This document shows positions 1,324-63,986 of a DNA stretch of 64,000 nucleotides, piece by piece; within the stretch, counting starts at the first letter, position 1, and each line of letters starts with the position of its first letter. The stretch is from Bispira polyomma (lineage: Eukaryota), in the NCBI GenBank assembly GCA_965649765.1, contig OZ287752.1, positions 16,306,001-16,370,000 of the forward strand, written 5' to 3'. Below the pieces are notes generated by a model, which was not told where the DNA came from, did not search any database, and worked only from the letters and a program-made list of their open reading frames with translations. A program made the position numbers and the translations under genes.

Positions 1324-9786
<8,463 letters not shown>

Positions 9787-16160: not shown

Positions 16161-17935
16161 CTAGCTTTTAACAGGTGGCGAGTCATCTGGCTTCTCCAAA
16201 ACTGGCTCGTAATAGTCCAGCAGCTGGCAGTGGAACTCTGAAGGCTGAGGACATTGCAGAAGATACTCTGTGCATGTTTTCTGACCATCAGGTCCCTCTA
16301 CCTCTTCTACTGCACTTTCATGCTCCAGACATTTGTAGTAACTGCACACATGGTACTCATCATATTTAGGTGCAAGGATATCTAAAAAGGCGATCGTACC
16401 AATGGGTGCAGATATCTCGTGTACATTTCTATCACCAGGGGACAGCACACACACGTCGCTATCTTTTGTGACCATTAGGGGTTCATGTTTCACATGCCCC
16501 GTCACACATGATCGCTCCCATTGTCGTAATGACTGGAGTAAGCTTTCAGGTGGCTCTTTCTCTTTTCCTATTGTAAGAAACAGAAACATTAAATACATAT
16601 TTAAAGTGTGGGTCATATTTCAAATTGCTTTACCTTACATATATAATGCTAAACTTTATGAAATGCTAATATATAAAAATGTTGTTGATTAGAATTAGTT
16701 GTTTTTTTTCTTTTTATAAACAAGTAGATGTGTGTGATTTCTAATAGTCTAAGACTGGAAAGTGGTATAACCCTCATATATACCCAAATTCGATAGTTCA
16801 ATACATGTATTGAACAAACAGAAATAATCAAGTTAAAGAAGCTGCATGTAAAATACTTTGCAAAGGAAATTTTAACTTATTAAAAATAAGTCATTCAATT
16901 CCATTGGTATTGAAGTGGGTAACAACTTCAAAACAGAGCCAGTTTTCAAGTTGCCTTAAATAAAAACCCTCTACAATGCAGGTCAAAAACAGTTAAATAT
17001 CGTTGTATGGAAGTTGGTACTTCTCGGTGCTCTCTCTACAACAGTTTACCTAATTTGCATAAAATTCTTTCAATATTGCTCATATACACATGGCTTGTCA
17101 TTTAACTGTCAAAATTAATACTGGTGTCGTAACAGTTAAGGTATGATATTAGTTGGGGTTTTTAGTGTACTTAATACAAATATGTTTAACGTTGAATACA
17201 AAGTTAAGTAGTACGGTGAAAACCCCACTGCGCCGAAAACATGATGCATGACCATACTCAAAACCAGAATGTTAATTATGTAACAATTTAATGCCTTTTT
17301 TTTACCTCATATTTCCTTAATTTTTATTAGAGATAATTGAAGTTTGTTTTTATTTCGAAATGGCAAATGATTAATGCTAAATTGCAATAATACTAATAGA
17401 AAGTGATCGATAACAGGAAGTTTGACTATGTATAAGAGAATCCTTGGGGTTTTCGCCGCACTTAATAAAAATATATTTATCGTAAAATAGGTACAAAGTT
17501 AAAGCATTACGCCAATGATTAACCACGCCAATAACCCCACTGCGCTGAAAACATGATGCATTAATTTATCATACCTTCAGGTAGGCTTGAAAAACTTTTG
17601 ATTTCAGCTGTGCCATGTATCACCTTCACAATACCATGCATGTCCGGGTGATTGTGCAGAGGTATTCGCTGACCATTTCGGACGATAAAGATTCCCATTG
17701 AAAAGTGGGGGGAATCCCATAAATACACATAGCCAACCGGGGCTTCGTGAAGTGCTTCATCAAACTTTGTGTTATCATCGAGGATATCACTGTTGAATTT
17801 TATCTCATTCACTGTGAAACCTTTGACTAATTCCGCTAACTTAGATACATTTTCACTCACATCACCACTTCCCTCAAATCGAGAGAAAGTTCTGTGAGCA
17901 AAATTTAAGATACGTTGAACAAGTGGACCATTCAT
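16161..17935 (-). CDS. ADO: 2-aminoethanethiol (cysteamine) dioxygenase, PCO/ADO family, 255 aa
   Basis: Exon 1 17935-17575 (donor G|gtatga) and exon 2 16567-16161 (acceptor caatag|GA), 768 nt in total. Motifs FSMGIF, IPLHNHPDMHGIVKVIHG (HxH), NVHEI (third His), AFLDILAP-Y and CSYY. Confidence 0.95.
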
Positions 17936-17975
17936 GTTTTTATTTGGAGGTTGAGGACAACAAAACGGAACGGGA

Positions 17976-17983
17976 ACTTCCGG
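17976..17983 (-). promoter_or_regulatory. ETS-family consensus CCGGAAGT in a CpG-rich patch just upstream of the ADO ATG
   Basis: acttccgg on + lies 41-48 bp from the ATG within a locally CpG-rich stretch (17965-18001). Function is inferred only. Confidence 0.45.
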
Positions 17984-17999
17984 TTTGGCGGCGGCGGCT

Positions 18000-20900
18000 C
18001 GTAAATTTCAAAATTAAATTAATCTAGTCTTTTTATACCCACGTTTTGGCTTGTTTTACTCAAAAATCATCCTCACATGTTAGTATATAAACTGTTTTTC
18101 TATTTTTATGCTTAGTCTTTGTACAACATCTCTTATTTTTTTGAATGTGGGGTTATACTGAAAACGATCCCCTATTATCGACCATCACCACTGTATATTG
18201 TTTTCTGTTTTTTGTGCTTGGTACCCCTTTTTTTGTACCATCACGTTTACTTTTAGCGCTTGGCCCTTTTGTATCCTCATGCAATATTTTATTCCTTGTT
18301 TTTCTCCGAATTATTTTACAATCCCCCTTACAATATGTTTGCCATTAGGGCTGCCATCTTGTACCTGTCATTCCTTACGTTCTGTTACCGCAACGACTTA
18401 AAACTATCTGATACATTGTCAAAGCAGTACCACTTGGAAGACATTAATTTGTCTTGCAATCCTGTTCCACACTTTTGGTCCCTTCATACACACTGTTATT
18501 TTCGATCTAAATTCTGCCCAGTCAATTACCTACCAAAGGCAAAAACATTCAAACTCATTACCATCCTACTGGCAGGTGATATTGCGAGTAACCCTGGCCC
18601 TATTCAGTTCGGATTTGGAAATGCCCGCTAGTTGCGGAATAAAGGCCCTGTCATAGCCGATTTGATCGACTCATCCTCCATAGATATTTTCGCCATCACA
18701 GAAACACACATTAGGAGTTCTGATACTCCATCATTCCTGTCTGAACTTACCCCAGCTGATTTTCAGCTATTCCATACCCCTCGTGTAGGTAAACAGGGTG
18801 GGGGGGTGGGATTTTTTATTAAGAAAAACTATGAATGTCGATTAGTTGCTACACCAAGCTTTACATCTTTCGAACTCATCCTTGTCTCTGCTCACTGGAA
18901 AAACCAGTGTTTAAATTTTGCCACAGTTTATCGGCCTCCTGGCTCAAATCTCACTACATTTTTTGATGAATTCATGTCCTTTGTTGGGTTTACTTGCTCG
19001 GTACCCTCTCCTACTGTATTCTGTGGGGATTTCAATATTCACATAGACACCGCATCTGGAAATAGTAATCAGTTTTCCACAGTTTTTGAATCTTGCAATC
19101 TTACCCAACACATAAACTTCCCTACCCATATTCATGGGCATACACTAGACTGCTTGCTAACTCCGACTGATTTCAATGGTATCAGAAACATAAAAAACAT
19201 TGGCTGCATCAGTGATCATTTTTCGATATCCTGTGAAATTGATGCTCCCTCCCCACCATCTTTTGATGTCACACAAATCACTTTTCGGCAATTTCAAAAA
19301 ATCAATATGTCTGACCTTAGACGAGAGTTGGCAGATACGGCCTTCGTCAAGTCTCCTGCTGATAATGCCAGTGACCTATACACACAGTACTGCGCTGACC
19401 TGCAGTCTCTTATAGAACGCCATGCGCCATGTAAATCAAAGACATTGAAGAAGCCGGCACCTGAGTGGATCACCAGTAATTATCGTGAAATGAAGATGCT
19501 GCGCAGACAAGCCGAACGAACATGGCGCCGAAACAAAACTACTACAAATAGATCTAGACTACGCCAATGGATCACCCGGTGCAACAACACTATAAATGAC
19601 TCAAAACGTGCCTACTATGCTCAGATGATATCACAAAGCGAGGGTGACCCGAAGAAACTTTGGCAAAAACTAAATAGCACCCTCCACCGTAAAAAACAGA
19701 CTATACTACCAGAAAATTCCAATAGCAAATCACTGGCAAACATTTTTAGTACTTTTTTCACTGATAAAATTACCAGAATCCGTGACGGTTTTACATTAGC
19801 TGCCCCAAATGCCCCTTTACCAACATCTCCACCAACTATCTTCAACTGTTTCTCCACAGTAACTGTTGATGAAGTCAGGAAAATTATACTGGCATCACCC
19901 GTAAAATCTTGCTTGCTAGATCCGTGGCCCACATTCCTTGTTAAAGAATGTATTGACATTTTATTGCCCTCAATCACAAAACTTATCAACCTCTCGTTGA
20001 TAAATGGCGTTTTTCCAGATGACTTTAAAAAGGCTATTGTCACTCCTCTAATAAAAAAACCTTCTCTTCCAAAGGCTGACTTGAAAAATTACCGTCCTGT
20101 CTCAGGCCTTTGCTACATCTCTAAGTTGGTAGAACGCGCGGTTGCCTTACAGATCAAACAACATGTTGACGTCGGCAATCTGTCCAATAAGTATCAGTCA
20201 GCGTACAAAAGTGGTCATTCTACTGAGACTGCACTTCTCTGCATCAAAAATGATGTTCATACATCTTTATCCAAAGGTATGCCTACTGCCTTAGTACTGC
20301 TGGATCTGTCAGCAGCCTTTGATACTATTGATCACAAAGTTCTTCTTGAATGCCTATCGTCCTGGTTCGGTATCAGCGGTATGGCGCTTAAGTGGTTCAC
20401 GGCATATTTATCTGATAGATTCCAATCAGTCAAAATTGGCAATATCTTATCCGACCCAACATGGTTAAAATTTGGTGTTCCCCAAGGTTCCGTCCTGGGT
20501 CCCATTTTGTTTTCCATGTACACCACCCCACTCAGCAAGATTATTGCTGCATACAAAAACATAAACTTTCACTTCTATGCTGATGATACCCAACTGTACA
20601 TCCACCTTACACCTGACTCTGCCCAGGTAGCTTTCACTTCCTTACAGAACTGCCTTGTTGATGTACAACACTGGATGGCAGCAAATAAACTCAAGCTGAA
20701 CCCTGAGAAGACTGAGTTTATTTTGTTTGGCTCCAAGTCGCAACGGGAAAAATTGTCCAGCTGTTTTCCACTTGACATTCTTGGCAGCAGGTTTTTTCCA
20801 GCTGAAAAAGTACGAAACCTGGGCGTGGTGTTCGACTCTGAATTTTCCTTCTCGAACCATGTCGCATCGGTGTGTAGATCATGTTTTGTTGGCCTCCGTG

Positions 20901-21592
20901 ATTTCAGGCGGATTCGACGCTATCTTTCCAAATCCACTGCAGTCACTGTTGCCAATGCTTTGGTCAGCAGCAGGCTTGATTACTGCAACTCTCTGTTCCG
21001 TTCCTTATCTCGTAGTGATCTCAGACGCCTTCAGAATATCCAACACTCATTGGCACGTATTGTGACCAAAACATCTAAATTTTCCCACATTACTCCTGTA
21101 CTCAAGTCACTGCACTGGCTCCCAATAAAATATCGTGTTGCTTTCAAAACAGCAACAATAATATATAAATTTCTAAATTCTGGATTACCCACTTATTTTA
21201 GCCCCCATTTATCCAAATATACATGCTCAGTTAGGACTAGGCGCAGTAACCCTGATAAATTATACCTTAACATTCCCACCTTCGACCCTCGCATCCACAA
21301 ATCCAAAGTTCAGTTCAATCACTGCCTAGCTCATGATGGCCCCCTCATTTGGAACAGCCTACCTGATCATGTTCGCCTGGCTCAAACTTTCTCCTCTTTC
21401 AGGAGTAAGCTGAAGGCCTATCTTTTTGAACAGGCTTTTCCACCTTAGCCGTCGCAACCATCTACGGTAGTCTCCCTGGTTACGACTTCCATCCGCCCAC
21501 TATTTTTGATTTGCGATTAACGTTTTGGGTTTGTTGCGCCTTAGAATTTGTTGTACAAAGATTAAGCGCTATAAAAGTACAACTAGATTAGA
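18000..21592 (+). mobile_element. L2/Crack-clade non-LTR retrotransposon, near full length (5' boundary uncertain)
   Basis: APE endonuclease (ITETH, GGGVG, YRPP, GDFNIH, SDHF) and RT (LDLSAAFDT, GVPQGSVLGP, YADD). C-terminal SRLDYCNSL and HITPVLKSLHWLP are typical of the L2 group. Short 3' UTR ending gcgctataaaag..tagattag. Confidence 0.93.
18335..21448 (+). pseudogene. LINE ORF: leader peptide, 2A-like motif, APE endonuclease and reverse transcriptase, interrupted by one in-frame TAG at 18629-18631
   Basis: ORFs 18260-18631 and 18632-21448 are the same frame. The stop falls in the first endonuclease motif NAR*LRNK, normally N-x-R-S-L (TCG>TAG inferred). Confidence 0.85.
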
Positions 21593-21617: not shown

Positions 21618-23265
21618 GGTATATACTATACCTCGGAATTGCCGCCCTATTTGAGCCGTCCTGGAACAGGGCGGCAGGGCGGCAACTTGATAAAGGTGTA
21701 ACATAAAGAATGAATTGTATAAATGGATGTATCTATCTAAATACTTTCTCCAAAAATTTCGTTTTGGTATGACTATGAAAGCTCTTATAATGTACTTTGT
21801 CATAGGTTTCACTAATTATAATTAAAAAAAGGCTGATTAAAATATTGTTAAATTTGGATTGTATATTTAAAATTTCTCCTCTTCTAACCTCCAGTCCAAC
21901 TTACCACCCTCTAAAGAGGCATATCTCTATTCCAACCCCCATTCCAACCTGCCGCCCTGTAGAGAAGTACATCTCCATTTCATCTCCCATGTCAACCTTC
22001 AATCCAGTCTAACTCCCTGTAGAAAAGTATATCTCCATTACAACTCCCATTTCAACCTTCAGTCTAGTCTGCCTCTTTGTAGAGAAGTATATCTCTATTC
22101 CAACTCTCATTCCAAATCCCATTCCAACGTGTCGCCCTGTAGAGAAGCCCAGCTACATTTCAACTTTCATTCCAACCCCCATTCCAACCTGCCGCCCTGT
22201 AGAGAAGTATAACTCCATTACAACTCCCATTCCAACCTTCAGTACAGCCTGCCTCCCTGTAGAAAAAGTATATCTCTATTTGAACTCTCATTCCAACCCC
22301 TATTCCAATCTGCCGCCCCGTAGAAAAGTACATCTTCATTTCATCTCCTATGTCAACCTTTAATCAAGTCTACCTTCCTGTAGAAAAGTATATCTCCATT
22401 CCAACTCTCATGTCAACCTTCAGTCCATTTTACCTCCCTGTAGAAAAGTATATTGCCATTCCCACTCCTATTCCAACCCCCATTCCAACCTGCTGCCCTG
22501 TAGAGAAGCCTAGCTGCATTCCAACTCTCATTCCAACCCCCATTCCAACCTTCCGCCCTGTAGAGAAGTATAATTACATTACAACTCCAATTTCAACCTT
22601 CAGTACAGCCTGCCTCTCTGTAGAAAAGTACATCTCTATTTGAACTCTCATTCCAACCCCCATTCCAACCTGCTGCCCTGTAGAGAAGTATATCCCCATT
22701 ACAACTCACATTCCAACCTTCATGCAGTACAGCCTGGCTCCCTGCAGAAAAGTATATCGCCATTCCAACTCTTATTCCAACTCCCATTCCAACCTGCCGC
22801 CCTGTAGAGAAGTATATCTCCATTCCAACTCTCATTCCAACCCCTATTCCAACCTGCCACCCTGTAGAGAAGTATATCTCCATCAACTCCCATTTCAATC
22901 TTTAGTCCAGCCTGCCTCCCTGTAGAGAAGTATATCTCCATTCCCGTCCCCATTCCAACCAGCTGCCCTGTACATTCCAACTCCCATTCAAACCTTCAGT
23001 CATTTTTGCTAGGTTTTGCACTCTAAATGGTAATTATTCATTTAAAACTTAGAAATTACTAAAGATAAATTTGCAATAAAATAAGATAAGAAAGCTTGTT
23101 TTATTGTGATTCCTGTGCTCTTTGTTGCATCAAAATCCGTTGAGAAATGGCTAAGATATTTAAACTTAAATACAAGTACCCAGCTTATATGACCAGGGCG
23201 GCAGTACAGGGCGGCATTCTGATTCCATTCTGATTCCAGTTCTATTTCGAGGTATAGTATATACT
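21618..23265. mobile_element. Non-autonomous DNA transposon with 9-bp TSD (Mutator-like), carrying a minisatellite
   Basis: TIRs ggtatatactatacctcggaat / atttcgaggtatagtatatact. Direct repeat acgtaaata at 21609-21617 and 23266-23274. Confidence 0.8.
21890..22998. repeat. ~60-bp minisatellite, about 18 copies
   Basis: Unit ccctgtagagaagtatatctccattccaactctcattccaacccccattccaacctgccg, with two alternating variants. Confidence 0.92.
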
Positions 23266-35300: not shown

Positions 35301-38300
35301 TCTGCACTAGTTGGACTGGGACCTGGGTCCCAGAGTACATCAGAGACCTTCCTTATTTCATGCTTCCCAACTGTGCCAGATAATCGCCTGATAGTATAAA
35401 TCTTACACCTTTCAGTTTGGCCAAGTTGATTGCTTCAAACCTATCCAGGAAGGCCTTGCATATTTCCAACATAGCAGGACCGTTTATAGACTAAAAACAA
35501 TTTTAGAATGTGCCTGATAAAAAACTTAAAAAATATGCCAGTTTAATTAACTGAGACTTGACCTCTGTATATGTTTACTTCTATGGTTACAATTTTCAGA
35601 ATTCATCATCCCACAAAGCAGTTACAGAACCAATGAAGAAGTAAGTCAAAGTGATCTAATAGTATAGATATATATATACACACGTATACAGTATGTCCAC
35701 CTCTTTTACTATAAACCTTCCATTTATTGTCCCTGTTTGGGTAGCGGTGGTTTATACTAGCTCTGCCTTGATGAATGAATGGTTATACAGGGTGACGGAA
35801 AACTGCCCATCAGGAAATTATCCCATCAAGTGTTTCCCATCAGGAAAATTGCCCATCAGGAAATTATCCCATCAACTGAATTGAGGGGATGGAAATCTTC
35901 CCATCAATAGTCAAATTTTATTAGTTATTCCAAACTAAATTATACAATATTAACTTAATATAACTTTTATTACATTTTAAGTACATAAAACAAATTTTAG
36001 CACTATTACTTTATGGAATTTTTGGCACTTTTGCATCAGATATGCATTCTTCTTTGGATCCCACCTGAGTAGATACCTAGATTAGAGATCAAAGCCCATC
36101 ATACACTATGACCACCATTTGATTTGTGATCAGGAATGAAAATGAGACAATCTTTAAGTTAATTACACTTGACATCTATCACAAGAACCAATGTTACAAC
36201 ATTTGATTTGTGCTCAGGAACACAAAATGAAGGAGTCTTTAAACTGATTACATTTGGAAATTAGCATAATACACATTTAATGTTATTTGATTTATGCTCA
36301 GGGATGGAAATGAAAAAGTTTGTCAATTGGCAATAATGACATCACACAACCTTTTGAAGTAATATTTACATCAACATAGATAGATAAATAGATACTTTTT
36401 CTATGATACTGACATTAAATATAATATTCTAATTAAATGTGTGTATAAAAGGTATAAAACTATTATTTTGCAGGAATTGTAGAATTCACAATTTATTAAA
36501 ACTTTCTATATCTTCAATTTTTTTTTAAATTTTAATTTCCTATATTCAAATTATTTAAATAAAATTTTAAAACACAAGCAAAAACACTTTTGTAAAAAAA
36601 AATATTTTGCTAATGGCTGATGGGCAGTTTTCCTGATGGGAAATAATTGATGGGGTAATTTCCTGATGGGCAGTTTTCCTGATGGGCAGTTTTCAGGGAT
36701 GCGGTTATACAATCAGCGTTTATAACACAAACAAATGCATTAGAATAGAAGAAATTATTTAAACTTGCATAGAAAGGGGTGTTAATTGTTTTAAATTTCT
36801 TTTTGCATTATGAAATTTAACCCATTGACAGAATATTCGATAAAATCCTTGATTATAGCCCACAAAGCCAATATTTATGTGAAAAATATTTTAAAAATTG
36901 GGGACAGCATTAGTTTCTGGGTTTTCGAATAAAAAGAGTTTGGATAATCAGGATTCTACTTTATATATAGATAATTTACTACATTAATTTAGAAATAAAG
37001 TGTTGATATAAGAAGGTGGAAGGTGATCAGAGTCAAAGTGCATTTGTTATGACTCACAAAACCTGTGGCTTATCTCTTTGATTTTAATCTAAAGTTTCTG
37101 CTGTAGGTTCAACCACTTTAAATTAATAATATGTCACTATTTTAGAAACTTGAGAAATACTAAATATTTAAATGGGCCTTGGGAATGTGGAATGTTTTTT
37201 GGTTAACTTAAAGGCTAATGAGGATACAATTGATGGATTTGACTTGTGAGTTCAAATATTATTTGACAATGCATTAAAATGTTGTTCAATTGTTAAATCA
37301 TGCTAGAAGTAGAATATTGTCCTTTTCTACTACTCTACTAAAATAAACTTACCTCATTTGCAGTGAGATCATTCTTTTTTGTGGCTAATTTTACGAATGT
37401 TTCTAATATATCCAGGTTTTCCACCATATTTCCTGCAGTTCAGTCAGCCATTAAGAAAAGAGAACAGAGTCTACAGGTAAGGAAGTGGGGGAGCCTTTAT
37501 CAACAATCATAGGTCTTCTTTTACTTTGTTATTGTAACACATCTGAAGACTTCTCATTTAATGGTTTTACTCATACTGTAGAACCCCTATTATCTGGGCT
37601 GGTATTCACAAAGGTTGTAATTTTTGTCTCAATCAATTTGATTGGCTGAACACATTGTTTCAAAGAATCTGATTGGCTTAGACTTAGAAAATTCAAAGAA
37701 TTGCATTGTAAGAATGTTTCCTATACACTGTAGAGAGTTATTTTCCTTGAATAATAGATGGGGTTAACAAATACAAAGATGCATTTTAGGTATCAGAACA
37801 GTATAAAAATCTAAACTGAAGAGAGTGGGAACGAGTCCATCTAAGGGAATTTTCGGAGATTATTATAAGAGTTCAGATAATAGAGGTTTAGTTGTATGTA
37901 TCAGTTTGCTGATTGTAAATACACTAGAACCTCTATTATCCGAACATGTTGGCAGAGAAAGATTTGTTCGGATAGTAGAAGGTTCATTTAGATAGAAGAG
38001 ACATTTTACTTTAAAATACAAATAGAAAAACCTAAATTTGGGAGAGTGGAAATGAGTTCATAAAATTGAATATTCAGATAACAGAAGTTTAGGCATTTTA
38101 GTGTAAAACTATATGAAATTTAACATTTGAAAATAAGTGGATAAATTGAATATTCAGATGATAGAAGTTTGTATAAATGAATAGAGGTTCTACTGTACTA
38201 GTATTGGTATGTAAGCAAAATGTGTTGAACATATTTTATTGTGTTCGCAGATGCTCAGAGAGTAAGTGCATAGATTAATTTCACTGCCTATTGTTTTCTC

Positions 38301-41300
38301 ATTCTAATGTGAGACAGCAGGTGTCTATTTACCTGGGGCCTGTAAATCGAAGCTCCAACTAACAAACATGAAAGGACCACACAACGAGGCTTTAACTAAA
38401 CCACTCCATGGGTACATAGAAAGCAGTTATGTTTTTGTTAAACTCAGCCCAAACAAAGGCCTAAGTTATAAGGTTCTATGTGATATCAGAAAGTCCTCGG
38501 TTCTATTCCCGGTACCGGCTGCTAGTTTCAGTTGGTGGGATAACATCCTTAGGCAAGATGTGAACACAAGTTTACCTAGTGGCTCGGATGACCACTTAAA
38601 ATGGCGGTCCTCTGTCACTGAGTAATATCTCCAGTGATAGATTAAAGATCCTTGGGGACGTTGATAAATGGTCATCCTCAAGCACCTCGGCGCCCATAGT
38701 GGCTGCCCATGAGGAAGCGCATTTGAAAGGACGCTGTGTTCTTTAAGTGCGCTATAACAAATGTACTATTTCATTTTATTTCATTTTCATTTCATATCAT
38801 ATGTTTAGGTTATGATATAAATGCAGTAATTGTGCACCATTTAACATGCACCAAGCTTTCATATGTCTTATACAGAGTTACACATAAACGTTAGGCTTAA
38901 CACTAAGATTAGACAAAAACCTTTTGTGAATACAACCCCTGGTGATCAGCTATATATACTTTCTGAGGTTTAGTTTGAAACGAGGCAAATTTACTATACA
39001 ACTTCTGATGCACGTGTAGACTTGTTGCGTGACCGTGACTAAATGACTTGAGATAAGTCAGTTTTGAAAATGAAATTAAAAATTTCAAATGGCACTTAGT
39101 CATCACCTGGTCTTACCAGGTAGGGTAATGACATCATATGATTGTTACCCCTCTTGTCTGTGACATCACAAACAAGATTGTTACAAGTCAGACACTATTT
39201 GGTGTCTATAGACATAATGGGGTGACACGGTTTCGCCGAAGAGGCTCATCAGACGCTATGTGCGGTGTCAAGATATGAATGGGTAGGTCCAGGTGTAGGG
39301 CCATGAGTGGAGAACAGCAAAGGTGATTGTTGTAGGACATATGCATGTGGTAATGCATAGGTCCTTGGTGTACTGGTGTAGGTATATGCTCCACTTATAC
39401 CTGGTGAGGGTTTACCTGTATAACACAGGTGGGTGTTATTCAGGGTGGGAATGGATTTTGGGGTGGTGGTGACCGTGGGTTACCAGGTTGTTTTCGGTGT
39501 CTATTAACACTGGTAGGACCAAATCCTGGAGTATGGGTTTGGGATGACTGGGGTGTACAAAGTATCATGAATAAAAATTTTTTAACGTGGCAAGTGATAC
39601 TTCGTGCAGCCCTAGGTGTTATTCCTGTATATTCAGGCCTTGTGGTGCATTGGTGTGTAACCTATGCTGCCAATTCCTCTCTATGATCCTGCGGATGTTC
39701 AGAGCCCGGGGTGACTCTGGGTGTGCATGGATAAAATCCACAATGTGAATCTCTAGATCTGAGATACCATTGTGGTCGGGTAGGTTAAAGTGGTGGCCTA
39801 CCGCATCTTTGAGGTTTTTGATTGTGATGTTGTAGAGGTGGCCCTGGAAACGGTCCATGAGTCTACGTTTGGTTTGGCCCACATACTGAAGTTTGCATGT
39901 TTTGCAGGTGATGCAGTAAATGAGGTTATTGCTTTTACAGTCAACCCTGATTTTGGTGGAGTAATCACGGTTGGTTGTAGTGCTGGTGATTCGACCTGTG
40001 GTGTTCAGAATGGGGCAATATCTGCATTTTGCAGTAGTGCATGGTGAGTTATGGGCTACCTTGGTGAGAGGAATGGTTTTGGGTTTTGGTGGATATTCCA
40101 CTTTTGCCCGTACGAGTTTTTCTCGGAGATTGTTGCTCCTATGGTGGCCGAACACCAAACTGTCCTTTTGGTCAAAAAGGTATTTGGTGTCGTTGGAACG
40201 AGTCAGATGAGACCAGTTCTGATTGACAATGTTTTTCAAACCAGGAAATTGTGGTTGATATGTAGTGATGATGAACAGACGGTTTGGGTCGGAAACCTGT
40301 TGTTGTGATGTAGACGGGTCCAGGAGGTCTGACCTGTTCTTGGACCTTGCCTTGGTGAGTGCTCGGTCAACTAGTTGTTGTGGGTAGCCTCTCCTGATAA
40401 AATGTTTTGAGAGGTGTGCGGCATTGATTTCGAAGTCCTCGGTGGAGGAACATATTCGTCTCACTCTTAGGAATTGACTAAAAGGGAGGCTGGATTTGCA
40501 GTGTAGAGGGTGCGAGGAGGTATACAACAGGTAATTGTGTGAGTCTGTAGGTTTACTATACAGATTCGTGCTTAGAGTGCCATCCTGGTGAAGGGAGACT
40601 GTGGTGTCCAAAAAGTTAACACTGGTGGATGATATTTCCGCTGTGAACTTGATTGATGGATGGCAAGAGTTCAAATGTTGGATGAACTGATGTAGGGCCG
40701 GCTTTGTGTCAGTCCATATGACAAATATGTCGTCTATGAAGCGTAGCCAAGTGTGTGCTTGGCTGTAGTACGTGTACACATGTGTGTTTTCGAAGTAGCC
40801 CATAAAGTTGTTGGCATGTGAAGGTGCCACTTTGGTGTCCATGGCTGTACCTGAAATTTGCAGGTAGTGTTTGCCATTAAACTCAAAGTTGTTTTTATTC
40901 AGGACCAGGTCTAAAAGTTGTATTAGAGATTGGTTATTGGGGTGTTTTGCCCCCGGTCGGTACTTGGCAAGGGTTCTAGCCGCTGCCCGTATACCCTCTT
41001 TGTTGGGTATGTTGGTGTATAGAGAGGTGACCTCCAGTGTCACTAGTAGACAATTTGGTGGTAATTGGCCTATGTTATTTATCATTTGTAGAAAATGAGT
41101 GGTGTCTTTGATGTAAGACTTCTGTAGAGGTATAGTGGGTTTTAGAAAAAAATCAACAAATGAGGATATTTTTTCGGTTGGACTCTCATTGGCAGATAGT
41201 ATGGGTCGACCTGGTGGGGGTCTTTGTGGTTTGTGTATTTTGGGCAATGTGTAGAACCTGGGGGTTCGTGGGTTCTTGTTGGCCAAAAAATTGTGACAGG

Positions 41301-44300
41301 TGATATCTATTTCATCCCTGTTTAGCATCTCATCTAGTATTTTGTGAACCAAAGTGTTGTGTTCTTCGGTAAGATCATGGTCTATGGGTTTGTAGAACTT
41401 TTGATCTTGTAATTGTCTGTTAATTTCAGATATGTAGTCTGTAGTGTTCTGAATGACCACTGCAGAGCCCTTATCAGCCGGTTTGATGGTAATTTCCTTA
41501 TTGTCAAATAATTGTTTGATGGCAATTCTTTCTGACCTTGTCAAGTTGTTGACCTTGGTGTTTCTGCAGATGATGTTTGCAGTTTTTGTCTCATTTAACA
41601 TTATCATGCCCTCTATGGTGGGGGGGGGGGGCCCGTGGGCTGCCAAGTTGATTTGTTTTTAAATCTTTGGTCCTTGAATGGCTCCTTGCTGTTGTGGTAG
41701 GGAGAAGGTAGGTTGAGGTCAGTAATAGGACTGGGGTTTACAGTGAGGTCTCTGGGGGGGTCATTGTCCTCTGAGTGGAAGAAATGGCGCCGACGTAGGT
41801 CCCGGTGGAAATTGTCGAGATCCTGAGTTGACTTAAATTAGGTTCACCAGGTGATGGGCAGAAGTTAAGACCTTTGGACAGTAAGGAGATTTGTGGCCGA
41901 GTGAGAGTAACACTGGAAAGATTAATAATGGATGTACTAACCTCTGTTTCTAGCGGGCTATTGACCTGGTTTGGGTCAAGGTTGCCGTTGTTATTGTTGA
42001 TGTTGGTTATAACATCGATCAAGTGATTACTTGATTTTGTCCACGAATGTGGTAGGGAGATACATATATAACAAAGCAATGTTTTATTAACCTGACATGG
42101 GTGTGTGGTCATAAACAAGGTATATAGTATGTGTGTTACTATTAACAGATAAAAAATCTTATCTACCTTGACTAGAAGTCTTAGTCTATCTGTTGAGTCT
42201 AAAAAACACATGTAATGGTTATAGTGGAGTTCTATTGGCGAAAGGCCCTGATGAGTGCCTCTTCCCTGGGTGTGAGTACAATGTTCCTGTTTGCTGGGGT
42301 ACCACGTCCTCTGCTGGTTCCCCTGGAGCCTCTGCCTCGTCCTCTGAAGGCAGGGGAGCGAGATCTTTGGTATGTAGATTTTGGGCTTTGGCCCCTGAGT
42401 GTGGTCCTCGGGAATGAGGGGCCTGGGCGGCGCCCCCTTGACCTTGAGCGAGGTCTCGTGGGACGCCTTTGGGCGTTTGGGTGGTTCCTGTTGGTTTCCT
42501 CAGTGGATGTGGCAAACCATCTAGCTGAAATGGCCTGGTTGGTGACGGGGTTTGCTCTGATTTGAGAAATCATTTTTGAGATGGTGGTTGATGTTGTATC
42601 CTTATCTTTTTGCACAAGCGTGGCAAGAAAGTTGAGGGCTTCCTTAGCTCCGTTTGTGTCTGAGCCGTACACATGCTCCACTGATCGAGTTAGAGCGTGA
42701 CCCATGGCCGTATCCTTAATATGTTTTGCTTCAAGTTCTTCGGCCAGGCTAAGGACGAGGTGGCGCCCTGCTTCTTTAAGCTTCTGGATAATAAGGTCAG
42801 ATTTATCCTTTGGCAAGAGGTGGCTGGGGACTGGTTCCAAACCCATAGCCCACGGAGGTAGTGTGTCCTCGGTGACAAGTTGGTTGAGGTAAGCTGCCCT
42901 AAGCTTAGCTTTTTCTGCAGCTGATAAGGCTGACCGTGTCTGGCGCCATAGGTCCATGGCTTCGGTTTTAACGTTGAAGACGGGTGTGTCTTGCTGATTT
43001 TGTACCTGAAACGACACAGATTTGTCGCTATTAGGGGTGGGTATAGCTGGTTGGGCTTGAGGAGTGGTAACAGTTTGTTGGTTAGGCAGACTGCCATTTT
43101 GGAGAGAATCCGGGTGTGAAATGTCCGTTGGGGCATTATTCCGGATTTGTGAATCAGTTATATCATTGGTTACACTTTCCGATGATGTTGTTGAATAACT
43201 ACTGATTGTGTGAATTCTACATCTTTTTTTGTTTTTTTGAGCACTGATGAAAGAGGTGGTATCGATCATCGTGTGTGCATTTGGTTGTTGCGCAGACGTA
43301 TGAGGTAAACTGTTTTGTTTACCTTCCGTGTCAATGGCGGTGTCCGATTTGATTTGAACCGTTGGTGAATCTGATATTTCTGCCAATTGCAGGTAAGGAA
43401 TGGAGTTTAAGAGAAGACACCATACACTAAAAAAAAAAAAAAAAAAAAAAAAATACTTTCTGAGGTTTGCTAAATTGTTAAAAAAATCTCCTACAATTAG
43501 TTTCTTGTCATGTTTTTAGGAGTACAATAAAAACCAAGCCAAAGTGGATAAATATCATGAGAAGGAGAGAACAGGACCAAACATAGTCAAACTGGACTCT
43601 GTGAGTTAAACTAACCATTATGGGATTATATTTTGTCTTGTGAATTACACTGACCATTATGGGATTTTTATATGTTGTCTTAGGGGCCGTGGTGGCCTAG
43701 TAGATATCTAGTAGTTATAAGCGTCTGCTTTAAGATCACTGACCTCTCACCTCTGGGGATCAAATCCCACATATTCCTTCTTCATGTGAGAAAGTTTGTC
43801 AGGTACTTGCCGTAGGTCTGTGGTTTCCCCCCACCACTAAACCTGGCCATCGCAATATGACCAAAGCTGTTGATGCAACTTAAAATCCAAATAAATTAAA
43901 TAAAAAAAAATTTATGTTGTCTTCTTGCATGGCACCATACAGTATAGAGAAGACACCATACAGTATAGAGAAGACTATTAGTTTTGTTAGCAAACCATTT
44001 TGGCAATTGTTTTCAATCATATCAATTCTAAAGTATAAGAGCATAGTGATAATTGGAATCCAAAATTCATAAATAAGATATCTACAGGGCTATTTGCAAA
44101 TAATATTATTCTAAAGTTACATTTCCGCAGTGAATTTGATTGGTTGATGTCAAGGTAACTAACGAACAGAGACTAAAACAATTAAAAAATAAAAGAATGT
44201 TCATGGTCATCTAAGAATATATGATATTTTTCCTGGTGGGATTTTTGATGTTTTCTATATTCTATTAATCTATCTTCGTTGTTGTTGTTGTCCCAATCCA

Positions 44301-46880
44301 GAGTAGAAAAGGTCTGAATATAGCCAGAGAAGACTATGAAAGTCAGAACAATGCCCTAATGCAAGACATGCCTACACTGTATGAGGGCAGAGTAGATTAT
44401 GTGGAACCTTCCTTTAAAGCTCTAGTCCAAGCACAGGTACAGTACACTACTACCCTCTGTACAATATAGGAATAACACCCGACAAACCATAGTTTATGCA
44501 GAATTTTGCCATGATTCCAGGTTTAGATCAACTCAGGCTTAAAATTTTTAAGGGAGGTGAAGATTACTTTTTTCCAAAATGCAGATTTAGAAATTAATAT
44601 CAGTAAAAATGCTATCCTTTTAGGCTATATTTCCAACGAGAAAAATCATCTCTTATTAAATATCATAAATATTATTGCAAAAAAATATGTGTTCTCCTGT
44701 GCTTTTAAAAGAAGTACCCCAGTTCTAAGAGCTTTTCTTCAATATCTGAAACAAATCTACTGTGAACAGGAATTACTAGCTAAAATAAACCTAAGGATAT
44801 TGCAGTTCCACAGAACTTGAGGAAATGTTAGTACTTTGCTTCAGAGTTGCTAAAAACATTATATATGTACTAAATGTTAATGGTGAACAATATTTTATAC
44901 TTCTATATTCATACTTATTTTTGAAACTATTGTATATGTATATCTTATGTATAATATGTAGTACTATAATGTGCCTATGGCAATAATAAAAAACTATTTA
45001 AAAAAAACCTAAAAACTCAGGCTACATCTTCCTGGTTCTAAACCTTGAATCATAGTAAAATTCTAGTACTAAACCTTGAATCATAGTAAAATTCTGGTAC
45101 TAAACCTTGAATCATTGTAAAATTCTGGTACTAAACCTTGAATCATAGTAAAATTCTGGTATTAAACCTTGAATCATGGTAAAATTCTGGTACTAAATCT
45201 TGAATCCTGGTAAAATCTTAGTCTAAACCTTGAATCATAGTAAAATTCTGGTACTAAACCTTGAATCATGGTAAAATTCTGGTACTAAACCTTGAATCAT
45301 AGTAAAATTCTGGTACTAAACCTTGAATCCTGGTAAAATCCTGGTACTAAACCTTGAATCCTGGTAAAATCCTAGTACTAAATGTTAAATCATTGTAAAA
45401 TTCTGTTACTAAACTTTGAATCATTGTAAAATCCTGGTACTAAACCTTGAATCATGGTAAAATTCTGTGTTTTCCAAGGCTTGGAGTGTGCTATTCCTAT
45501 TGTAACATAACGAAATAATAAAAATGATACAATTTTTATTTCTATCAATCTTTTAACCTACCATTGACCAAAAGTGAAGTAAGGGCCAGTGAATTTTGTT
45601 ACAAAATTGTAAATTAGTGAAAAAATTTTTAAGCTAAAAATTCCACTGATACAATATATATGTAAACTTGCTGTACAAAAATATGGTGGATGCACAAAAT
45701 ATGGAAATTTTTTTTTCAGTGTTCTAAAAAATATTGCATTGCCAAACACGGCTAATAAGTACGTTATTAAGTATTCTCAAGGAATAAATTGTCATATTAA
45801 CTTTCTGATACGTATCATGAAGAATATTTTTGTAATTGGTTATTATAAATATACTGGTCATTTAATATATGTATATGTTGCAGTAAAGTCATGTAATCCC
45901 TGATTTGGTCAGGTAAACATGTATATTCCCTATATCCCTTCTAAAAACAAGATGGCTGCCATGAGTTTCAGCTTGAACACACAGTTGGCCATAACTAGAA
46001 CCAATTTTTGTGTATATTGAACACTATGGGCTGTTATCACAGGCTTTTCACCCAAACGTATTTCCATCAATTTGCTTTTCCCCCTTAACATACATCTGCT
46101 GGTTGCAACTGAAGTGTGAGCACAAACCTATTTCTTTTGTTGGGATCTTAATTGGGATATGTGCCCCAACACAATATGCCTGGACATTAATTGGCATTAA
46201 CATTTGACCTATATACAGACTGTCTTCCTATATCTCCACAGTGGGCTAGTTGATAGAAGTGCCTGCTTTACAATTACTGGCCTCTCTCAACAAGGTGGGT
46301 TGAAATCCGCTTCGTTCCTTCATGTGGGAAAGTTTATCAGGTACTTGCCTGTAGGACTCGGTGGTTTACACAGTGGCTTCATTACTGGGCTTCTTTAACT
46401 CTGTGTTTTCAATGAAAGATATGAAGTTGCTAAAAACTGACATAGTACCATTCAGAGCTAATTAACTACATGACAGGACATAACATTGCTGAAAACTTCA
46501 CACAACGCTTTATCAAGTCGACATCTATTGGAGCACTATTACATATTAAGTGAAGAAACCTAGAATGGGTTTCGAATGCTAGGTTTAAAACATGCCTATT
46601 GGCTTTTCTCCACTGGGACATGCAGATTGGGGTATGCACCACACACACATGATATGCCTGGATATTGGTGGCCATTATCATTTGACTTGTATATACAGAG
46701 TCTTCCTATATGTGTGTGTTTCAGATGAAGTACTTCACAGAGGCCCACATAGTGTACAGTGAACTGTCAGAGAAACTCTGCTCAGGACGACCGGACTTAC
46801 TAGTCAAAGACGATTACGATAAACATGTGCAGCAACGTATTAATGAGATCATAGCACTGTCAATTACTGCAGATAACTAG
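29359..46880 (+). CDS. BIN3: Bridging integrator 3 (N-BAR-only protein), about 257 aa
   Basis: Exons 29359-29369 (least certain), 29482-29530, 31134-31174, 31640-31701, 33461-33597, 35600-35640, 37416-37476, 43520-43600, 44302-44436 and 46725-46880 (TAG). Total 774 nt with consistent phases. Translation MSFRNPFKPHGPKK..AEREFEREAKKL..SPLC..VTEPMKKFSTIFP..AIKKREQSLQEY..AKVDKYHEKERTGP..DMPTLYEGRVDYVEPSF..ALSITADN is colinear with BIN3. Confidence 0.93.
35790..36702. mobile_element. Mutator-like MITE with 9-bp TSD and subterminal repeat arrays
   Basis: TSD ggttataca at 35781-35789 and 36703-36711. Inverted ends g..gaaaactgcccatcagga / tcctgatgggcagttttc..c, with arrays of cccatca / tgatggg. Confidence 0.85.
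38484..38797 (+). mobile_element. tRNA-derived SINE (family A), 5'-clipped copy
   Basis: Reverse-complement match to 6980-7290, with an (atttc)n tail at 38768-38797. Confidence 0.85.
39211..39262 (-). ncRNA. Minimal type I hammerhead ribozyme candidate
   Basis: Minus strand reads CUGAUGA-GCC-ucuuc-GGC-GAAA-C-cgu-GUC. Predicted cleavage after position 39224. Stem I is imperfect (gu/ac plus acaua/uaugu). Confidence 0.65.
39619..42211 (-). pseudogene. Penelope-like reverse transcriptase plus GIY-YIG endonuclease, disrupted
   Basis: Motifs IINLS..LLSKGLNFCP, DLDNFHRDLRRRHFF, FKNKSTWQP, IKPADKGSAVV, FYTLPKIHK, PGRPI, RFIDDIF, NFLD, LYSKPT, a Cys linker PCTTAKCRYC, NLIYCITC..C..QYVGQT and PQGLN. 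Frameshifts near 41822 and in the G12 run at 41620-41631. Motif A reads LEVTSLY (Asp to Glu) and GTAMDT replaces GTAMGT. Confidence 0.9.
42232..43386 (-). CDS. ORF1 of the Penelope-like element: low-complexity N-terminus, helical core, Arg/Ser/Gly-rich basic tail (putative nucleic-acid-binding protein)
   Basis: 384 open codons on the same strand as, and directly upstream of, the RT region, with the same base composition. Tail RRPTRPRSRSRGRR..RGRGRGSRGTSRGRG. The listed start is TTG and the true start is uncertain. Confidence 0.7.
   Translation of the reverse strand: MAEISDSPTVQIKSDTAIDTEGKQNSLPHTSAQQPNAHTMIDTTSFISAQKNKKRCRIHTISSYSTTSSESVTNDITDSQIRNNAPTDISHPDSLQNGSLPNQQTVTTPQAQPAIPTPNSDKSVSFQVQNQQDTPVFNVKTEAMDLWRQTRSALSAAEKAKLRAAYLNQLVTEDTLPPWAMGLEPVPSHLLPKDKSDLIIQKLKEAGRHLVLSLAEELEAKHIKDTAMGHALTRSVEHVYGSDTNGAKEALNFLATLVQKDKDTTSTTISKMISQIRANPVTNQAISARWFATSTEETNRNHPNAQRRPTRPRSRSRGRRPGPSFPRTTLRGQSPKSTYQRSRSPAFRGRGRGSRGTSRGRGTPANRNIVLTPREEALIRAFRQ
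43682..43900 (+). mobile_element. tRNA-derived SINE related to family B
   Basis: ggggccgtggtggcctagt..tcactgacctctcacctctggg..caggtacttgccgtagg..gtggtttcc..ttaaaatcc. Related diverged copies near 470-600, 8510-8690, 12655-12850 (-), 46240-46380, 47010-47170 and 51060-51210 (-). Confidence 0.65.
44540..45013 (+). mobile_element. 5'-truncated L1/Tx1-type LINE 3' end with A-rich tail and 10-bp TSD
   Basis: TSD aactcaggct at 44530-44539 and 45014-45023. Peptide ILLGY..LLNIINIIAKKYVFSC resembles an L1/Tx1 ORF2 C-terminus. Tail aataataaaaaa..aaaaaaaa. Confidence 0.7.
45033..45467. repeat. 31-bp tandem repeat, about 14 copies
   Basis: Unit ggtactaaaccttgaatcat(a/g)gtaaaattct. Confidence 0.95.
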
Positions 46881-61380: not shown

Positions 61381-63924
61381 CTAATCTAATCTAATCTAGT
61401 CGTACTTTTGTAGCGCTTAATCTTTGTACAACAAATTCTAAGGCGCAACAAACCCAAAACGTTAATCGAAAATCAAAAATAGTGGCCGGATGGAAGTCGT
61501 AACCAGGGAGACTACCGTAAATGGTTGCGACGGCTAAGGAGGAAAAGCCTGTTCAAAAAGATAGGCCTTCAGCTTACTCCTGAAAGAGGAAAAAGTTTGA
61601 GCCAGGCGAACATGATCAGGTAGGTTGTTCCAAATGAGGGGGCCATCATGAGCTAGGCAGTGATTGAACTGAACTTTGGATTTGTGGATGCGAGGGTCGA
61701 AAGTGGGAATGTTAAGGTATAATTTATCAGGGTTACTGCGCCTTGTCCTGACTGAGCATGTACATTTGGATAGATGGGGGCTAAAATAAGTGGGTAATCC
61801 AGAATTTAGAAATTTATATATTATTGTTGCTGTTTTGAAAGCAACACAATATTTTATTGGGAGCCAGTGCAGTGACTTGAGTACAGGAGTAATGTGGGAA
61901 AATTTAGAATTTTGGTCACAATACGTGCCAATGAGTGTTGGATATTCTGAAGGCGTCTGAGATCACTACGAGATAAGGAACGGAACAGAGAGTTGCAGTA
62001 ATCAAGCCTGCTGCTGACCAAAGCATTGGCAACAGTGATTGCAGTGGATTTGGAAAGATAGCGTCGAATCCGCCTGAAATCACGGAGGCCAACAAAACAT
62101 GATCTACACACCAATGCGACATGGTTAGAGAAGGAGAATTTAGAGTCGAACACCACACCCAGGTTTCGTACTTTGTCAGCTGGAAAAAACCTGCTGCCAA
62201 GAATGTTAAGTGGAAAACAGCTGGACAATTTTTTCCGTTGCGACTTGGAGCCAAACAGAATAAACTCAGTCTTCTCAGTGTTCAGCTTGAGTTTATTTGC
62301 TGCCATCCAGTGTTGTACATCAACAAGGCAGTTCTGTAAGGAAGTGAAAGCTGCCTGGGCAGAGTCAGGTGTAAGGTGAATGTACAGTTGGGTATCATCA
62401 GCATAGAAGTGAAAGTTTATGTTTTTGTATGCAGCAATAATCTTGCTGAATGGAGTGGTGTACATGGAAAACAAAATGGGACCCAGGACGGAACCTTGGG
62501 GAACACCAAATTTTAACCATGTTGGGTCGGATAAGATATTGCCAATTTTGACTGATTGGAATCTATCAGACAAATATGCCGTGAACCACTTAAGCACCAT
62601 ACCGCTGATACCGAACCAAGACGATAGGCACTCAAGAAGAACTTTGTGATCAATAGTATCAAAGGCTGCTGACAGATCCAGCAGTACTAAGGCAGTAGGC
62701 ATACCTTTGGATAAAGATGTATGAACATCATTTTTGATGCAGAGAAGTGCAGTCTCAGTAGAATGACCACTTTTGTACGCTGACTGATACTTATTGGACA
62801 GATTGCTGATGTCAACATGTTGTAAGGCAACCACGCCTTCTACCAACTTAGAGATATAGCAAAGGCCTGAGACAGGACAGTAATTTTTCAAGTCAGCCTT
62901 TGGAAGAGAAGGTTTTTTTATTAAAGGAGTGACAATAGCCTTTTTAAAATCATCTGGAAAGACGCCATTTATCAACGAGAGGTTGATAAGTTTTGTGATT
63001 GAGGGCAATAAAATGTCAATACATTGTGGGCCACGGATCTAGCAAGCAAGATTTTACGGGTGATGCCAGTACAATTTTCCTGACTTCATCAACAGTTACT
63101 GTGGAGAAACAATTGAAGATGGTTGGTGGAGCTGTTGGTAAAGGGGCATTTGGGGCAGCTAATGTAAAGCCGTCATGGATTCTGGTAATTTTATCAGTGA
63201 AAAAAGTATTAAAAATGTTTGCCAGTGATTTGCTATTGGAATTTTCGGGTAGTATAGTCTGTTTTTTACGGTGGAGGGTGCTATTTAGTTTTTGCCAAAG
63301 TTTCTTCGGGTCACCCTCGTTTTGTGATATCATGTTGGCATAGTAGGCATGTTTTGAGTCATTTATAGTGTTGTTGCACCGGGTGATCCATTGGCGTAGT
63401 CTAGATCTATTTGTAGTAGTTTTGTTTCGGCGCCATGTTCGTTCGGCTTGTCTGTGCAGCATCTTCATTTCACGATAATTACTGGTGATCCACTCAGGTG
63501 CCGGCTTCTTCAATGTCTTTGATTTACATGGCGCATGGCATTCTATAAGAGACTGCAGGTCAGAGCAGTACTGTGTGTATAGGTCAGTGGCATTATCAGC
63601 AGGAGACTTGACGAAGGCCGTATCTGCCAACTCTCGTCTAAGGTCAGACATATTGATTTTTTGAAATTGCCGAAAAGTAATTTTTGTGACATCAAAAGAT
63701 GGTGGGGAGGAAGCATCAATTTCACAGGATATCAAAAAATGATCACTGATGCAACCAATGTTTTTTATGTTTCTGATACTATTGAAATCAGTCGGAGTTA
63801 GCAAGAAGTCTAGTGTATGCCCATGAATATGGGTAGGGAAGTTTATGTGTTGGGTAAGATTGCAAGATTCCAAAACTGTGGAAAACCGATTACTATTTCC
63901 AGATACGGTGTCTATGTGAATATT
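61381..63924 (-). mobile_element. Second copy of the L2-clade LINE, 5'-truncated and frameshifted
   Basis: Highly similar reverse complement of about 19034-21592, with a (TAGAT)n tail at 61381-61398. It has a 14-bp deletion near 63024, a 9-bp deletion near 62822 and a 1-bp indel near 61910. Confidence 0.95.
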
Positions 63925-63986
63925 AATATGGATATTTTTGTATACTCAATGTAAATAAACACGACAAAGATATTTTCATAGGGAAT

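Follow-up and report, generated by a model that had tools for sequence, protein, structure and literature searches.

The 64,000-nucleotide stretch of Bispira polyomma DNA analysed in this study (contig OZ287752.1, positions 16,306,001 to 16,370,000; hereafter the window) carries on its minus strand a Neptune-type, endonuclease-bearing (EN+) Penelope-like element (PLE). This element spans 4.4 kb and comprises an upstream open reading frame (ORF1), a reverse transcriptase (RT), a cysteine linker and a GIY-YIG endonuclease (EN). The preferred reading, with a probability of about 0.68, is that the window holds the 5'-truncated ORF1 of this PLE, likely encoding a Gag-like RNA-binding protein, and that the RT-EN is made as an ORF1-RT-EN fusion through a programmed -1 frameshift at the heptamer C CCA AAC, about 82 codons before the ORF1 stop. 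An earlier note on this DNA had described an intact and separate ORF1 of 384 codons in an under-described two-ORF Penelope lineage; the -1 overlap, the frameshift signal and the 5' truncation were missing from it.

The extent of the element in the window (43408-38971, minus strand) was established from 40 loci fetched around matches to the ORF1 core. The core was matched 111 times in the host genome (1.04 Gb, 75 contigs) at E<=0.001. Between families A and B the nonsynonymous divergence (dN) of the core was 0.077 with saturated synonymous divergence (dS), and that of the N-terminal extension was 0.264. The minus-strand ORF is thus more than a chance frame, and its core is under purifying selection. 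One 16-bp target-site duplication (TSD), with exactly matching copies at 43468-43453 and 38971-38956, brackets a 25-nt T tract (43429-43453; an A run on the plus strand), a 20-nt filler (43409-43428; 16 nt match host sequence at 43946-43961, family D18), the ORF1, the RT-EN and a pseudo-long terminal repeat (pLTR). An RT was present within 1.5 kb downstream of ORF1 in 33 of the 40 loci. As a single TSD surrounds both coding regions and most loci have the RT downstream, the ORF1 belongs to the PLE, as the earlier note had proposed. The other seven loci are truncated or degenerate copies. The ORF1-RT order is collinear in at least five families (41-98% identity), and the same order was found in a metagenome contig (L112). 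Four of ten ORF1 homologs looked up share their source with an RT among the top 120 RT relatives (P0003/P0155, P0006/P0166, P0011/P0153 and P0016/P0178), which is indirect support for the linkage. Copies with TSDs were spread over at least 13 contigs. Insertions are dispersed, with TSDs of 15-17 bp, and no telomeric repeats were observed at the ends of the window copy. About 30 degenerate relatives of family C (L065-L068, L070, L131-L143) keep remnants of ORF1 and linker, mostly with no detectable RT, and may be a non-autonomous derivative.

In fuller copies, the last 600-650 nt of the element are repeated upstream of ORF1 as a pLTR (seven sister loci: L031, L032, L033, L038, L040, L043 and L044), and the full ORF1 has 432 codons from an ATG located 27 nt after this repeat (L033, L038). 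The window copy has the 3' pLTR (38971-39600) and lacks the upstream one. It is cut at 43408, so that ORF1 (42232-43408) has lost its first 30 codons including the ATG, and a further 11 codons are gone through an in-frame 33-nt deletion near 43239. The 384-codon frame of the earlier note (43386-42232) was recovered without an internal stop and with the core and tail that it quoted; its count begins at a TTG, and against the 432-codon sisters it is not intact. The RT and GIY-YIG region (39619-41875) is broken by two frameshifting indels (4 nt lost near 41826, 5 nt gained near 41631), and contigs from three DNA runs of one study have neither. Motif A reads VTLEVTSLY, with Glu (41034-41032) in place of the Asp found in all 38 other matches listed. 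Both the frameshifts and this substitution had been noticed before. Sister copies are 95-97% identical. The window copy is a dead member of a young family: its ATG is gone, its RT is frameshifted twice and its motif A is changed.

The RT is of PLE type, with a DKG motif and an N-terminal GLNF-type motif, and in the unbroken sister L044 it matched RVT_1 with 31.8 bits (cut-off 29.6). The GIY-YIG motif is directly visible (core at 39805-39927, with two Cys between the GIY- and YIG-like motifs), and its match to PF01541 (E=6e-4, 20.5 bits) fell just below the curated cut-off of 22.6. A C-X4-C-X2-C motif at 40015-40041 fits the CX2-5CxxC linker between RT and EN that is common to Neptune and Nematis; DKG, this Cys linker and GIY-YIG together mark one or other of these groups, according to the available part of PMC8557442. 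Minimal hammerhead core motifs (CUGAUGA, a short stem and GAAAC; 39224-39252) lie in the pLTR and are conserved across families A, B, D, E and F; Rfam made no call for them and the fold z-score was -0.58. An Rfam scan of 37500-45000 returned just two chance hits.

Word-based protein searches yielded one ORF1 homolog each, and the family was recovered by an HMMER scan. A profile of seven ORF1 cores retrieved 281 clusters (50% identity) at E<=0.001, including 115 at E<=1e-10; judging from these matches, ORF1 represents a widespread family without a name. Most of the 150 listed homologs share one layout, with a variable N-terminus, the core, a tail rich in Arg-Ser and Arg-Gly (RS/RG), a final short helix and a stop; two of them, P0082 and P0147, continue into RT N-terminal sequence. 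The window core (42496-42990) was modelled by AlphaFold2 with a mean predicted local distance difference test score of 93.6, as a predicted bundle with long helices at residues 9-40, 61-108 and 112-146 and a short fourth helix. The same helical arrangement was predicted for the homolog P0010. The tail contains 22 Arg in 82 residues, and from this composition and from its position ORF1 is likely a Gag-like protein for RNA binding or packaging.

The profile and structure searches that the earlier note had called for gave this family of 281 clusters and no Pfam, PDB or viral match beyond generic bundles. Among ORF1 and 67 aligned homologs, no Pfam domain was shared by more than one member, and no esterase was detected in ORF1. 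The PDB sequence search with ORF1 gave weak matches at most (best E 0.012), and Foldseek comparison of the P0010 model with PDB and viral structures gave none at E<=0.001. Kinship with the syntaxin Habc domain was considered and rejected, as the best VIA-align Z-score of the P0010 model (9.2, root-mean-square deviation 5.8, 114 residues aligned) is in the range of generic helical bundles. In the ESM Atlas, eukaryotic clusters without a name scored 0.83-0.91 and are leads only. No ORF1 relative was detected in viral contigs, and in a metagenome scan 193 pattern matches came down to two loci, one of which ends within ORF1. The segment AAYLNQL..LPPWAMGL had been taken in the earlier note as a possible diverged form of the N-terminal motif of single-ORF elements. 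No single-ORF PLE with such an N-terminus was present among the loci fetched (L071-L128), and none of the top 120 RT relatives carried a fused ORF1 core.

In families A to E, the RT frame is -1 relative to ORF1 and is open across the stretch between them. In the window it overlaps the last ~82 ORF1 codons (42232-42474), a region which in frame 0 encodes the RS/RG-rich tail and the C-terminal helix, so that the two ORFs are not simply separate. The table of sites has 40 rows, two of which are one site fetched twice, and was taken as 38 sites. The RT motif was still within 900 nt at 30 of the 38, and at 22 of these 30 it was in the -1 frame, which was free of stops from the heptamer to the RT motif at 20 sites and contained stops at 2. 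The -1 frame is open for 80-91 codons within ORF1. From core codon usage, 2.5-9.5 stops in this frame were expected in the overlap of A, B (two copies), D1, E and F and none was found, with probabilities of zero stops from <0.0001 to 0.067, in tests that are not independent as the families are related. The upstream core had 7-13 stops at -1 per 95-165 codons (1-3 in B), and the last -1 stop stands directly before the heptamer in D1 and E.

The linker between ORF1 and the RT is AT-rich (63-68%), with 4-15 stops in each frame other than -1. No -1 stop was observed in 6 of 7 copies (P ~0.001 each by shuffling). In the window, this linker (41876-42231; 63% AT) reaches to the KGLNFCP motif and has 11, 11 and 0 stops in frames 0, +1 and -1, respectively. 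In D1, D2 and E there is no Met ahead of the conserved KGLNF motif of the RT. At L054/L055, L058 and L059, indels in the overlap, unshared between loci, place ORF1 and RT in a single frame (1,172 codons in L059). The linkers of A, B, D and E have in common a short inverted repeat and an AATAAA-like word (42018-42035 and 42079-42084 in the window).

A programmed -1 frameshift signal consists of an X XXY YYZ heptamer, a spacer of 5-9 nt and a downstream stem, with the enzyme encoded at -1. In the window, C CCA AAC at 42475-42481, read in the frame of ORF1, is a candidate slippery heptamer, and 7 nt past it lies a candidate stimulating stem-loop (42429-42467). The pattern of C(C/T)CAAAC, 7 nt and GG was present in all 14 aligned sequences, which represent nine families or subfamilies. 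The heptamer was C CCA AAC in frame in eight of the nine and C UCA AAC in E. The synonymous sites of these families are otherwise mostly diverged: in a comparison of A, C, D1 and E, 44 core residues were invariant and just 4 of them had the same codon throughout. The spacer is 7 nt (6 in one) and the stem has 8-10 bp with compensatory changes. In the stem, 82% of cells were paired, compared to 32-45% in slid-partner controls. Three pairs are altered on both sides, one of them appearing as C-G, A-U, U-A and G-C, and the covariation score was reached by 0 of 500 shuffles, a control which ignores relatedness. The stem was present in the lowest-energy fold of 9/9 sequences, and RNAalifold gave the same stem.

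A number of observations weigh against the frameshift. It is read from sequence alone, and the packaging role of ORF1 is drawn from composition and position only. The RT motif was in other frames at 8 of the 30 sites, with indels seen in six of these. The depletion of stops in the overlap was weaker when codons were permuted within the overlap (P 0.001-0.18), and the relatedness of the families lowers the weight of all such P values. The representatives of C and D2 have one -1 stop each in the overlap. These stops look private to those copies, as 14 of 15 aligned sequences lack the 6-nt insertion in which the C stop sits, and the overlap is open throughout in two other D2 copies. The signal pattern itself, with up to 5 mismatches allowed, served to choose the 14 sequences of the signal alignment, and C UCA AAC or AAU, present in E and the degenerate C-like copies, is a poor site for two-tRNA slippage. 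The number of doubly changed stem pairs was not above that of shuffles (116/500), and the shuffle control behind the covariation score takes no account of relatedness. The D stem has two mismatches, the stem z-scores were weak for D1 (-0.5), G (-0.4) and I (-0.9), and candidates for the second stem of a pseudoknot, inspected by eye, were inconsistent across families. In the metagenome relative L112, the RT is in the +1 frame, AUGs are present at the ORF1 stop and there is no heptamer; the mechanism is therefore not family-wide.

The frameshift looks confined to one subclade, as only P0003 and P0034 among the 150 homologs, both from other sources, keep the Pro-Asn-x-x-(G/R/T)-R motif encoded by the signal. 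In a quick tree, which contained only relatives without a name and two NCBI proteins not labelled as PLE, and no named Neptune references, A, B, D, E and F grouped with P0153-P0155 (SH-aLRT support 97), apart from L112. The related RT proteins P0153-P0272 often have long, weakly conserved, AT-rich-looking open leaders (median 121 and up to 304 residues, 102 of 120 measured), which end in an Asn run before an SVVNLS motif. Other branches likely reinitiate, since L112 lacks the heptamer and has AUGs at the stop, and since many related RTs start with a Met up to 300 residues before the motif.

Termination-reinitiation is established for human LINE-1 (L1; a long interspersed nuclear element) ORF2 and for SART1. 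ORF1 in the window might likewise be a separate product, with the RT-EN made by reinitiation at or just past the ORF1 stop, from an AUG or a non-AUG codon. This alternative is unlikely. It keeps some weight against the frameshift, because an in-frame AUG is present 8 codons past the stop in A and B and at 16 in C. The AUGs at the ORF1 stop of L112 are in its RT frame, the start of many related RT proteins at a Met 120-300 residues ahead of the KGLNF motif would also fit, and so would the recurrent inverted repeat of the linker. However, reinitiation leaves unexplained why the -1 frame opens 80-91 codons before the stop, as well as the heptamer, the spacer and the covarying stem, and D1, D2 and E have no AUG ahead of the RT motif from which it could start.

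Production of the RT-EN from spliced RNA is likewise improbable. Here an upstream exon would be joined to an acceptor near the heptamer, or an intron would remove the ORF1 stop, and the AATAAA-like site in the linker would end a short ORF1 mRNA. PLEs have introns (PMC8557442, available part), and an AATAAA- or ATAAAG-like word does recur in the linker. An AG ends the spacer in 8 of 9 families, which counts for splicing. However, this AG is found in codon phases that vary between families, it is preceded by A (AAG) in A, B, D1 and I, and no pyrimidine tract was observed. An intron spanning the linker would need no single open frame there, and the four joints listed in the three DNA runs sit elsewhere.

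It is very unlikely that the heptamer and stem are a by-product of a conserved peptide (P-N-x-x-R-R-P...R-S-R-S-R-G-R), or a signal for RNA packaging or priming, with the RT reached in some other way. The stem arms do fall on conserved Arg, Gly and Pro codons, and an internal stem-loop in an Anolis Poseidon element marks the RT start site (PMC11167929, in the part available). Against this, codon identity at the signal is above that of the core, the paired third positions covary, and the depletion of -1 stops begins at the heptamer. The notion that ORF1 only neighbours the RT, as part of some other insertion or as a host gene, for which the seven loci without a downstream RT and the C-like group of ~30 degenerate copies might speak, is largely refuted by the shared TSD, the collinearity at 41-98% identity and the metagenome order, and has next to no probability left.

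Under the preferred reading of a -1 frameshift, most ribosomes would make the ORF1 protein, with its variable N-terminus, helical bundle, RS/RG tail and C-terminal helix; this protein would form oligomers and cover the element RNA. A smaller share of ribosomes would slip by -1 at the heptamer, giving a fusion of about 1,300 residues, which would retain the helical core, shed the basic tail and bear the RT-EN. As the fusion keeps the helical core, the enzyme would enter the particle through this shared core, at a fixed low ratio.

The element resembles the Neptune clade in its PLE-type RT with DKG, C-X4-C-X2-C linker, C-terminal GIY-YIG, pLTRs in partial tandem and candidate hammerhead core motifs. 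Canonical EN+ PLEs are single-ORF elements (PMC8557442), and PLEs have been described as having either a single ORF with EN or two ORFs without EN (PMC6431247), as far as the available parts of these papers go. Unlike these canonical elements, the element described here has an ORF1 of 432 codons with its own stop and an RT that overlaps it at -1, and so falls outside the single-ORF definition. It also differs from the EN-deficient, telomere-associated, two-ORF Athena and Coprina groups, as it has a GIY-YIG domain and dispersed insertions with TSDs.

The legend of Fig. 1 of Craig et al. 2021 (PMC8557442, available in part) describes the coiled-coil ORF1 of PLEs as in some cases 'separated by a frameshift with a pseudoknot'. 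Such PLEs share with the window element a helical ORF1 upstream of a PLE RT, joined to it by a frameshift (a probable one in the window element) and an RNA structure; the window element differs in its GIY-YIG domain and its dispersed insertions with TSDs of 15-17 bp, and its sequence supports a stem-loop, with no consistent pseudoknot seen. The frameshifted ORF1 in that figure is reportedly from the EN-deficient Athena group, the clade being named in neither the legend nor the preprint legend. No such frameshift was found in the available parts of PMC4209133, PMC11167929, PMC3846280, PMC5718144, PMC6515669 and the preprint 10.64898/2026.07.22.740005. The literature searched, with Repbase and Dfam outside the comparison, contained no frameshift signal for an EN+ PLE, though Arkhipova 2017 (MBE) and Gladyshev and Arkhipova 2007 may describe such a signal. 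To this extent the lineage is under-described, as had been claimed, but extra ORFs in Neptune-like elements are already in print: esterase ORFs in fish and molluscs (PMC5408684) and, in the killifish Neptune repeat.CL27, an ORF1 of 140 codons without annotation in a non-overlapping arrangement (PMC12602865). The window ORF1 differs from these in having no esterase or other Pfam domain, and no overlap or frameshift signal is described in the available parts of those papers.

With retroviral and Ty3/gypsy gag-pol, the window element shares the X XXY YYZ heptamer, the spacer of 5-9 nt, the stem, and a structural ORF in frame 0 with the enzyme at -1. Unlike them, it has no capsid fold, zinc knuckle, protease, integrase or LTR, and no viral structural match was found. 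By this analogy, ORF1-RT probably works like gag-pol but falls outside those groups. The ORF1 protein of L1 is also similar: it is encoded by the upstream ORF of a retrotransposon that integrates by target priming, and it has coiled-coil character and a basic region; in the window ORF1, however, no RNA recognition motif was detected, nor any sequence or fold match. L1 ORF2 is made by reinitiation and not by a frameshift.

Some further observations were made on the copies and their surroundings. A T tract on the sense strand was found at the 5' junction wherever a copy was truncated, in 16 of 22 copies of families A and B (loci L031-L045, L057 and L101-L105) compared to 1.1% of flank windows. 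The tract lies within the TSD, which was at least 9 bp in 17 of the 22 copies and mostly 15-17. Such tracts suggest that the end of the cDNA is A-tailed, or that priming takes place on a poly(A) tail; no precedent for them was found in the literature searched. Other, more numerous PLE families in this genome have a different ORF1 of ~260-267 residues, followed by a non-overlapping RT ORF with its own ATG (L071, L072, L076, L080, L081, L083, L089, L113, L114, L118, L121, L123 and L128). This second type of ORF1 had no Pfam match, and its hhalign comparison with the window ORF1 family gave probabilities of 1.6% and 2.0%, the latter near-gapless over 100 columns. An ORF with C2H2-like zinc fingers was repeatedly observed before or after PLEs of this type (L071 at 2157-3407 in oriented coordinates, L084, L114, L115, L119, L121 and L123), and a recombinase-like ORF past the RT in L079. 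Such ORFs may have been carried along as cargo, or may belong to larger elements.

Elsewhere in the window, two exon-like frames at 16161-18007 (minus strand) match PCO_ADO, of the cysteamine/cysteine dioxygenase family, and represent a host gene. An unbroken LINE ORF of 938 codons, encoding an endonuclease and RT, is present at 18632-21448 (plus strand), with a broken copy of the same family at 61534-63945 (minus strand); this family was also found in or beside several PLE copies. Tandem arrays are located at 21924-22944 (60-bp units), 45032-45467 (31-bp units) and 1624-2346 (169-bp units).

PLEs are the sister group of telomerase RT, and to our knowledge how they build their ribonucleoprotein is barely known. 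A broader picture, tentative and at somewhat less than even odds, is that a large branch of EN+ PLEs has a true Gag equivalent, a helical-bundle ORF1 of hundreds of clusters, with RT-EN coupled by a -1 frameshift in one subclade and by reinitiation in others. The single-ORF picture would then be wrong for much of Neptune diversity, the second type of ORF1 may be distantly homologous, and tailing of nascent cDNA at integration would be indicated by the T tracts at the 5' junctions. The conserved ORF1 and frameshift cassette offer testable handles, namely a signal of 60 nt, a confidently predicted domain without a Pfam family, and several near-complete young copies. If the frameshift reading is true, annotation would also change, as pipelines for EN+ PLEs assume a single ORF, which leaves the ORF1s annotated as hypothetical proteins and wrongly places the start of the RT at an internal Met.

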